From: Escherichia phage Antha
Direction: 5' to 3' (one strand)
Sequence record: PP925826.1
DNA length: 64,000 nucleotides
Part shown: piece after piece, positions 27,037-27,588 of the stretch
How positions within the stretch are numbered: position 1 is the stretch's first letter
Layout: every line of letters begins with the position of its first letter
Notes under the pieces: model-generated
What the model was told of the DNA's origin: nothing
What the model saw: the letters and a program-made list of their open reading frames with translations, nothing else
Databases searched by the model: none
Made by a program: the position numbers and the translations under genes

Positions 27037-27588
27037 TCAGGAAATATCAGATTGTGCTTTTAGATAAACAGCAAGGTCTGTATGCCATTTTCCTAAAAGA
27101 TTTTGTCCTTTCCAACAGTCCTTATTTTCCACGTCACGATCCCACATTCCCATTTTGATACCATAAATAGAATCATAAGGGCTTGCCTCTACGAACTCCT
27201 TATCTGCGTAAGCGATAAGTTTATTTTTGAGATCTTCATTTTGTGTGTATTTAAGATACAAACCACGCTTGACAATCTTCTCCCGTAAAGAAGTCCAAGT
27301 AGCTTCATCGTAATCTTTAACTAATCTACCTAGTCGCTTATAATATGCTTGTTCTTTTTCTCCTGTATATCTTAGATCTCCGGTTAAAATAGAAGATGCA
27401 ATACTGTAATCATAAAACAAACATGCTTTTCTCCACATCATATATTGTTCCACACAAGTAAATTCAACAGAACTTGTAATAGAATTATTATACTTGGGTG
27501 CTAAAGGTTCAATAAAAGATGATAGATACCAGTTGCTAAATTCATCTTTTGCTGAAAAGAAGAACACATACTTATCAGTAATCCGCAT
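27037..27588 (-). CDS. NADAR (YbiA-like) domain protein
   Basis: FFFSAKDEFSNWYLSSF, VEQYMMWRKA, ASPYDSIYGIKMG align with YbiA FYS..FSNF / EHYFQAQKF / NDxYWGxG. Confidence 0.7.
   Translation of the reverse strand: MRITDKYVFFFSAKDEFSNWYLSSFIEPLAPKYNNSITSSVEFTCVEQYMMWRKACLFYDYSIASSILTGDLRYTGEKEQAYYKRLGRLVKDYDEATWTSLREKIVKRGLYLKYTQNEDLKNKLIAYADKEFVEASPYDSIYGIKMGMWDRDVENKDCWKGQNLLGKWHTDLAVYLKAQSDIS

Follow-up and report, generated by a model that had tools for sequence, protein, structure and literature searches.

A stand-alone NADAR protein of Escherichia phage Antha is very probably an anti-DarT1 enzyme of the AdfN^Bas60 type

Identity of the NADAR protein and its known counterpart

The minus strand of the stretch of Escherichia phage Antha DNA that was analysed (the window; 64 kb of a genome of ~146 kb) encodes a NADAR-domain protein of 183 amino acids (Table 1). 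This protein is very probably a stand-alone, Glu-type NADAR ADP-ribosyl-glycohydrolase of the AdfN^Bas60 type, which would reverse the DarT1-type ADP-ribosylation of guanines in phage DNA. According to Johannesman et al. (2025, Nat Commun, PMC11825919), the phages Bas60, Bas61 and Bas62 encode a NADAR named AdfN^Bas60 ('anti-DarT factor NADAR'), which in uninfected E. coli cells neutralised the toxin DarT1. Expressed ectopically, AdfN^Bas60 allowed RB69, T5 and Bas25 to plate again on hosts with DarTG1 and did not rescue T5 on DarTG2. The paper describes AdfN^Bas60 as independent of other phage factors, unlike T4 AdfN, and groups it with bacterial NADARs that are neither YbiA-like nor DarT-associated; the evidence that it presents for AdfN^Bas60 comes from ectopic expression.

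In the BASEL phages Bas60 (PaulScherrer), Bas61 (EmilieFrey) and Bas62 (JohannJBalmer), a NADAR gene occupies the same slot as in Antha, between the same flanking genes (bas60_0111, bas61_0107 and bas62_0106, respectively). The tested protein would be bas60_0111, since a single NADAR was detected per genome and this gene is annotated as the NADAR gene. The Antha protein is of equal length, is encoded at the same locus in a phage of the same genus (Justusliebigvirus) and is identical to bas60_0111 at 181 of 183 residues. It differs from the Bas61 and Bas62 copies by two substitutions each. The variable sites are S62 (N in Bas61 and Bas62), A96 (D or T) and A178 (T in Bas60), all of which lie outside the 13 mapped ADP-ribose (ADPr) contact residues described below; A96 adjoins one of these, E95. 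At the codon level, the Antha gene differs from those of Bas60-62 by 9-12 synonymous and 2 nonsynonymous changes, and this predominance of silent differences is consistent with purifying selection.

Since a published protein that differs at 2 of 183 residues neutralises the DarTG1 toxin, the function of this type of gene is already known. By its near identity to that protein, the Antha NADAR almost certainly removes ADP-ribose from guanine in DNA, and we infer that counteracting DarT1 is the main role of the gene in its own phage. A sequence-only reading of the window had called the gene a NADAR-domain protein with activity on ADP-ribosylated guanine and a possible counter-defence function against DarT-like toxins. 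This call is supported and was correct in substance but is not new, the function having since been demonstrated for essentially the same protein (PMC11825919). The main value of the present assignment is a correct annotation, namely that of an AdfN^Bas60-type anti-DarTG1 enzyme, conserved across 55 phage records at an identity of at least 95%. For phage therapy and host-range prediction, the presence of this NADAR suggests that the phages carrying it resist DarTG1.

Table 1. Features of the window discussed in the text, with positions, strand and basis of each assignment.
Feature	Position	Strand	Basis and remarks
NADAR-domain gene, 183 aa, AdfN^Bas60 orthologue	27037-27588	minus	ORF call, profiles, predicted fold, residue mapping
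Shine-Dalgarno AAGGAGGTG of NADAR gene	27592-27600	minus	Read from sequence; inside 3' end of upstream gene
Stem-loop 29 nt past NADAR stop codon	26973-27008	minus	RNA folding; no U-run after
CapR/Zn-ribbon + T5orf172 (GIY-YIG-type) putative homing endonuclease gene	27589-28578	minus	Pfam, phrog_681
AAA-type ATPase gene	28653-29780	minus	Pfam AAA 38.9 bits; phrog_2376 E=8e-108
Sir2 gene	1209-2021	plus	79.4 bits; ~25 kb from NADAR
Macro-domain gene	47494-48327	plus	30.8 bits; ~20 kb from NADAR

Gene structure and expression signals

An ORF of 183 codons fills the interval 27037-27588 exactly. Its product matched the Pfam family PF08719 (NADAR / DUF1768) with 125.5 bits (E=3.1e-36; gathering score 35.1 bits) over profile positions 9-154 of 163. 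Matches were also obtained to the NCBIfam model TIGR02464, 'riboflavin biosynthesis intermediates N-glycosidase' (109.4 bits; cutoff 73.7), and to phrog_1017 (E=6e-50). The predicted fold and the catalytic residues agree with these profiles; the ORF is genuine and clearly belongs to the NADAR superfamily.

The NADAR gene is the final member of a minus-strand gene run, within an extended series of short minus-strand ORFs at ~2-32 kb, and GC skew marks a strand switch at ~32 kb of the window. Early expression, implied by the earlier placement of the gene in an 'early arm', is plausible. The ATG directly abuts the TAA stop codon of the upstream gene (27589-27591) and is preceded by the Shine-Dalgarno sequence within that gene, a junction which suggests co-transcription and makes translational coupling possible. 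The upstream gene is thus probably co-transcribed with the NADAR gene. Around the NADAR gene, promoter-like sites (27 vs 23.9 in shuffled sequence) and terminator-like sites (6 vs 4.5) were not in excess.

The stem-loop downstream of the stop codon had a folding energy of -20.9 kcal/mol (z=-2.3), and 2 of 200 shuffles folded equally well. With no U-run after it, it does not qualify as a canonical intrinsic terminator, and it was not recovered by a consensus terminator scan; it may be an element that stabilises the 3' end or terminates transcription. An Rfam search of the non-coding stretch 3' of the NADAR gene returned nothing at E<=0.1. Beyond the stem-loop lies a repeat-bearing stretch of ~800 bp.

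Predicted fold and active site

A family alignment of 65 homologues of the NADAR protein (38-62% identity) was used as AlphaFold2 input, and the resulting model had a mean pLDDT of 97.6 and a pTM of 0.92. Foldseek returned just two significant matches in the PDB, the Phytophthora nicotianae NADAR (PnNADAR) with bound ADP-ribose (8BAU; E=1.6e-9, TM 0.77) and E. coli YbiA (2B3W; E=8.7e-6, TM 0.69-0.75). The predicted structure contains the alpha-helical core flanked by small beta-sheets that is typical of the YbiA fold. The phage clade has two insertions, residues 29-39 and 69-75, that most homologues lack.

In PnNADAR, ADP-ribose is contacted by E43, K50, K75, G78, R79, V81, Y84, D86, W89, R93, E125, D130 and W133 (Schuller et al. 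2023, Mol Cell). With an offset of +2 from the published numbering to the 8BAU chain, 13/13 fell on the expected letters. In the Antha protein, the mapped site consists of E47, K54, K84, G87, R88, V90, Y93, E95, W98, R102, E134, D139 and Y142, of which 11 are identical to the PnNADAR residues and two are conservative replacements (D86->E95 and W133->Y142). Six of these residues (E47, K54, G87, W98, E134 and D139) were invariant in the 65 homologues, and K84, R88 and V90 were conserved in at least 90%. The catalytic Glu and Lys of NADARs are seven residues apart (E43/K50 in PnNADAR, E88/K95 in the NADAR of E. coli C7; Schuller et al. 2023), and the corresponding pair of the Antha protein is E47/K54.

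At the position equivalent to E134, YbiA and stand-alone NADARs have Glu, DarT1-linked NADARs Asp and T4-type phage NADARs His. Glu at this position thus identifies the Antha protein as a Glu-type stand-alone NADAR; it does not discriminate against the YbiA type, since Glu is common to both families.

Proposed mechanism

In the proposed mechanism, a DarT1-type toxin of the host would ADP-ribosylate guanines in phage DNA and block replication. The NADAR would bind the ADP-ribose moiety, with K54, R88, W98 and R102 on the diphosphate, Y93 stacked against the adenine, and the distal ribose held by E47 and E134. Hydrolysis of the N-glycosidic bond between ribose and guanine would then restore unmodified DNA, on which replication could resume. 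The enzyme would act as an orphan antitoxin that is directed at the damage rather than the toxin and that requires no other phage factor. These residue roles are carried over by analogy from the NADARs of Phytophthora and E. coli C7.

Distribution and annotation

A megablast search with positions 25500-30500 of the window matched 146 phage records, 54 of which covered at least 80% of the query. At the top, with 98.8-98.9% identity, stood the Escherichia phages vB-Eco-KMB37 and vB_EcoM_ESCO9, ahead of numerous other phages of Justusliebigvirus, the phi92-like myoviruses of the Stephanstirmvirinae. Bas60, Bas61 and Bas62 are called Vequintavirinae in PMC11825919 and are now placed in the Stephanstirmvirinae in GenBank. 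In tblastn searches, NADAR matches were found at 719 places in 718 records, i.e. one NADAR was detected per genome, and the 55 phage records with an identity of at least 95% included ESCO9, whose protein was 100% identical and annotated as 'hypothetical protein'. In the sister genus Phapecoctavirus, a NADAR with ~57% identity occupied the same syntenic slot.

Most public records label the gene 'hypothetical protein', 'putative YbiA-like N-glycosidase' or 'GTP cyclohydrolase II'. The last label is wrong and is best explained by annotation transfer from RibA-NADAR fusion proteins.

Comparison with other NADAR families

The closest solved relative was PnNADAR, both by sequence (pairwise E=6e-12, 49.4 bits; 128.2 bits with the profile built from the 65-sequence alignment) and by fold. 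The two proteins share the Glu-type active site with its largely identical ADPr contacts, and PnNADAR is active on ADP-ribosylated guanine. They differ in that PnNADAR is a eukaryotic stand-alone protein with only 28% identity to the Antha protein and with unlike fold extensions, the two insertions belonging to the phage clade.

E. coli K-12 YbiA (2B3W) has the same fold, the E...K motif and a Glu-type site, and it acts on ADP-ribosylated guanine (G-ADPr) in vitro. In a pairwise phmmer comparison it matched the Antha protein with 17.5 bits (E=0.036) over residues 85-143 only, whereas the family profile aligned it over its full length with 67.7 bits. The earlier observation that three motif blocks align with YbiA therefore stands at the level of profile and fold but not of pairwise similarity. 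Likewise, 'YbiA-like' is apt for the superfamily, but the protein is nearer to stand-alone NADARs (128 vs 68 bits), and AdfN^Bas60 lies outside the YbiA clade according to PMC11825919. We rejected a placement in the K-12 YbiA clade, given the marginal pairwise similarity and the preference of both profile and fold searches for 8BAU. YbiA further differs in being a housekeeping N-glycosidase of riboflavin intermediates whose operon is under LexA control. It is unable to rescue cells from DarT1, in contrast to the full rescue by AdfN^Bas60 (the latter from PMC11825919).

AdfN^T4 (gp30.3 of T-even phages) is likewise a member of the NADAR superfamily and an orphan NADAR against the guanine-ADPr produced by DarT1. 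In contrast to the Antha protein, T4-type NADARs have His in place of Glu134. The T4 NADAR does not remove ADP-ribose from cytidine (C-ADPr). PMC11825919 states that full activity of AdfN^T4 needs the T-even context, unlike that of AdfN^Bas60. Placement in the T4 AdfN clade was rejected, given the presence of Glu134 and a BLASTP comparison with T4 gp30.3 (E=2.2) that corresponds to no detectable pairwise similarity.

DarG1 proteins (BC4488-type; E. coli C7, Geobacter lovleyi) share the chemistry and the target lesion. They have a catalytic Asp (D171 in C7) at the Glu134 position and a basic N-terminal beta1-beta2-alpha1 extension ahead of the core, which is missing in the Antha NADAR; here, of the 183 residues, the PF08719 domain starts with residue 13 and the AlphaFold2 core with residue 2. 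DarG1 is encoded beside DarT1, whereas the Antha NADAR adjoins the T5orf172 and AAA genes. No DarG-named model matched the NADAR protein in PADLOC, the sole match being the candidate defence component PDC-M42C (117 bits), and no DarT1-linked NADAR structure was among the PDB sequence or Foldseek matches. We therefore rejected a DarG1 assignment: the protein has Glu instead of Asp and lacks the N-terminal extension, an adjacent DarT and a DarG model match.

Alternative explanations

Activity on ADP-ribosylated guanine in vitro is generic to NADARs, so such activity alone does not identify the physiological substrate. The enzyme might be a broader nucleic-acid de-ADP-ribosylase for which DarT1 lesions are one target and C-ADPr and G-ADPr on RNA are others, so that the phage would be shielded from more than one ADP-ribosylating toxin or defence. 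[quoted passage not shown] These activities make a wider substrate range plausible. The Antha protein carries Glu (E134) where the families diverge and is nearest to the stand-alone NADAR of 8BAU, and PDC-M42C is also matched by bacterial relatives (117 bits). The NADAR literature consulted for this comparison, however, describes no cytidine-modifying anti-phage system. We regard this broader range as possible but less likely than not; it extends the AdfN^Bas60-type explanation and does not replace it.

A metabolic role like that of YbiA, in which the protein would hydrolyse reactive intermediates of the riboflavin pathway or some other small ribosylated compound during infection and the anti-DarT1 effect would be a side activity upon over-expression, is very unlikely. 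In its favour are the score of the riboflavin N-glycosidase model TIGR02464, above its cutoff, the record labels 'YbiA-like N-glycosidase' and 'GTP cyclohydrolase II', and the remark that the substrates of orphan NADARs in the cell may be different ones (Schuller et al. 2023). The TIGR02464 match also counts as evidence against the AdfN^Bas60-type reading. However, the pairwise similarity to YbiA is marginal, and the family profile favours PnNADAR by 60 bits. In PMC11825919, AdfN^Bas60 falls outside the YbiA-like housekeeping clade. Moreover, the scan of the larger ORFs in the 64-kb window revealed no riboflavin genes, and the surroundings of the NADAR gene are a phage gene block. The failure of YbiA to rescue cells from DarT1, where AdfN^Bas60 succeeds, makes a YbiA-like role unlikely.

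It is very unlikely that the NADAR serves as an antidote or regulator for an ADP-ribosyltransferase (ART) of the phage itself, erasing the marks of this enzyme on nucleic acid. Such pairs exist in the DarT1-NADAR and YarT-YbiA toxin-antitoxin modules known from the literature, and large myoviruses such as T4 encode ARTs, e.g. Alt, close to gene 30.3. However, AdfN^Bas60 works without a phage partner, as stated in PMC11825919. In addition, Pfam detected no ART domain in 47 ORFs (the neighbours, and ORFs of at least 140 aa or adjacent ones) of the window, which spans 64 of ~146 kb; within this scope, the absence argues against a phage-encoded partner.

Other ADP-ribose genes in the window

The sequence-only reading had combined the NADAR gene with a macro-domain gene and a Sir2-like gene into an investment in ADP-ribose chemistry. 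Both genes are real, but they are located 20-25 kb away on the other strand and in other transcription units, so their link to the NADAR gene is circumstantial. The suggestion is reasonable, with circumstantial evidence in Antha. The macro-domain gene lies within a cluster of the Ter type (HAD hydrolase, PRTase_3, TerC, TelA, TerF-vWA and TerD), and its macro domain matched the DarG model of PADLOC (E=1.6e-13) as well as PDB macrodomains of bacterial and TARG1-like type. T4 sets a precedent, as its NADAR AdfN acts against DarTG1 and its macrodomain protein AdfM against DarTG2 (HIDEN-SEQ preprint).

A more speculative and rather unlikely proposal is that a broad-spectrum Glu-type NADAR, acting also on cytidine and RNA guanosine, and the DarG-like macro protein form a two-enzyme kit, with the insertions of the NADAR possibly binding nucleic acid. 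If true, this kit would serve phi92-like phages against defences of the DarTG1 and DarTG2 types and perhaps against others, yet to be discovered, that ADP-ribosylate nucleic acids, and insertions 29-39 and 69-75 might supply the nucleic-acid binding that allows action without a phage cofactor.

Neighbouring genes

The two neighbours named in the sequence-only reading, a T5orf172-domain protein and an AAA-type ATPase, were both confirmed by Pfam. The product of the abutting upstream gene matched CapR (89 bits), T5orf172 (21.5 bits vs a cutoff of 20) and phrog_681 'endonuclease' (E=9e-68). The ATPase gene is labelled 'FtsH-like protease' or 'ATPase' in relatives. The arrangement of ATPase, endonuclease and NADAR followed by a large gap is repeated in Phapecoctavirus, but the gene context of the NADAR of Proteus phage Mydo (45% identity) is entirely different. 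A conserved functional module of NADAR, T5orf172 and AAA genes was therefore rejected; the neighbours reflect lineage synteny within the Stephanstirmvirinae only.

In the alignment with Bas60, Bas61 and Bas62, the T5orf172 homologues were variants of 325-467 aa. The sole difference between these sister-phage genes is how many copies they contain of an N-terminal module of the Zn-ribbon/CapR type (~70 aa); the Antha gene has fewer copies than those of Bas60 and Bas62. Such variation in module copy number is typical of modular genes resembling those of homing endonucleases.

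Proteins linked to ADP-ribose and NAD chemistry

A candidate anti-DarTG2 factor was found in addition to the NADAR enzyme. The macro domain of the 47494–48327 protein matched the PADLOC model of DarG, the DarTG2 antitoxin (E = 1.6e-13), and its matches in the PDB were bacterial and TARG1-like macrodomains. The N-terminal ~120 residues gave no Pfam match. By analogy with AdfM (Tk.4) of T4, the protein is a candidate orphan antitoxin acting against DarTG2. Its gene was situated in a phage-borne Ter-type (tellurite-resistance-associated) cluster, carried here by a lytic E. coli phage.

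The Sir2-family protein was encoded ~25 kb from the NADAR gene and had no meaningful defence-system match in PADLOC. It may function in NAD-dependent deacylation or in NAD metabolism. A homologue of T4 gp30.8 was also present. In T4, gene 30.8 shares one small-gene cluster with 30.3 (AdfN), whereas in the window the homologue was ~10.5 kb away from the NADAR gene, which belongs to an unrelated clade. The co-occurrence of the two genes in both phages is probably coincidental.

In some public records (OR525700.1 and OR352953.1), the NADAR gene was labelled as GTP cyclohydrolase II. The product has no cyclohydrolase domain, and the label most likely resulted from annotation transfer from RibA-NADAR fusion proteins.

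Neighbouring genes and non-coding region

The length of the adjacent T5orf172/CapR endonuclease-like protein varied among near-identical phages, with 329 aa in the window and 467, 390 and 325 aa in the sister-phage sequences L002, L003 and L001, respectively. The C-terminal T5orf172 core was conserved, and the differences in length arose at the N terminus, where Zn-ribbon/CapR-type modules (~70 aa) had been gained or lost. The two AAA-family ATPases, encoded in opposite arms, were similar in size, had the AAA domain at about residues 76–170 in both cases and may be paralogues. The 28653–29780 product was labelled as an FtsH-like protease in relatives; the ATPase domain alone was detected.

An 800-bp non-coding region containing three tandem direct repeats separated the NADAR gene from the next genes. 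An Rfam search of this region returned nothing at E ≤ 0.1. The E. coli Fur consensus is the 19-mer GATAATGATAATCATTATC. A scan of the window with this consensus yielded seven matches at ≤3 mismatches (0.08 expected), and three exact copies of the core AATGAGAATCATT were located in this non-coding region downstream of the NADAR gene. Fur-box-like copies also occurred at the equivalent position in Bas60, Bas61, Bas62 and Phapecoctavirus ECO340P2. These sites may act as phage promoters under Fur control, may serve to titrate Fur, or may be the operators to which a phage regulator binds.

Features of the window and homologues in sister phages
Feature	Position	Strand	Details
Sir2-family protein	1209-2021	+	PF02146, 79.4 bits
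Fur-box-like sites, elsewhere	14931-14949, 15780-15798, 15841-15853, 38449-38467		
T4 gp30.8 homologue	16101-16559	-	PF06019, 100 bits
Sigma70-like promoter	26227-26255	+	TTGACA-17-TATACT; strongest of region, near tandem repeats
Fur-box-like cluster	26506-26600	-	three sites matching Fur consensus
Tandem direct repeats	26618-26838		three, ~70-79 nt each, 65-72% identical
T5orf172/CapR endonuclease-like gene	27589-28578	-	abuts NADAR start codon
T5orf172/CapR homologues	L002 2589-3992, L003 2593-3765, L001 22089-23066		
AAA-family ATPase	28653-29780	-	375 aa
AAA-family ATPase	44544-45704	+	386 aa
Ter-type cluster	46094-55453	+	starts: HAD hydrolase 46094, ComF-like PRTase_3 46761, macro 47494, TerC 48884, TelA 51640, TerF-type vWA 53990, TerD 54857
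Macro-domain protein	47494-48327	+	macro domain at residues ~125-276
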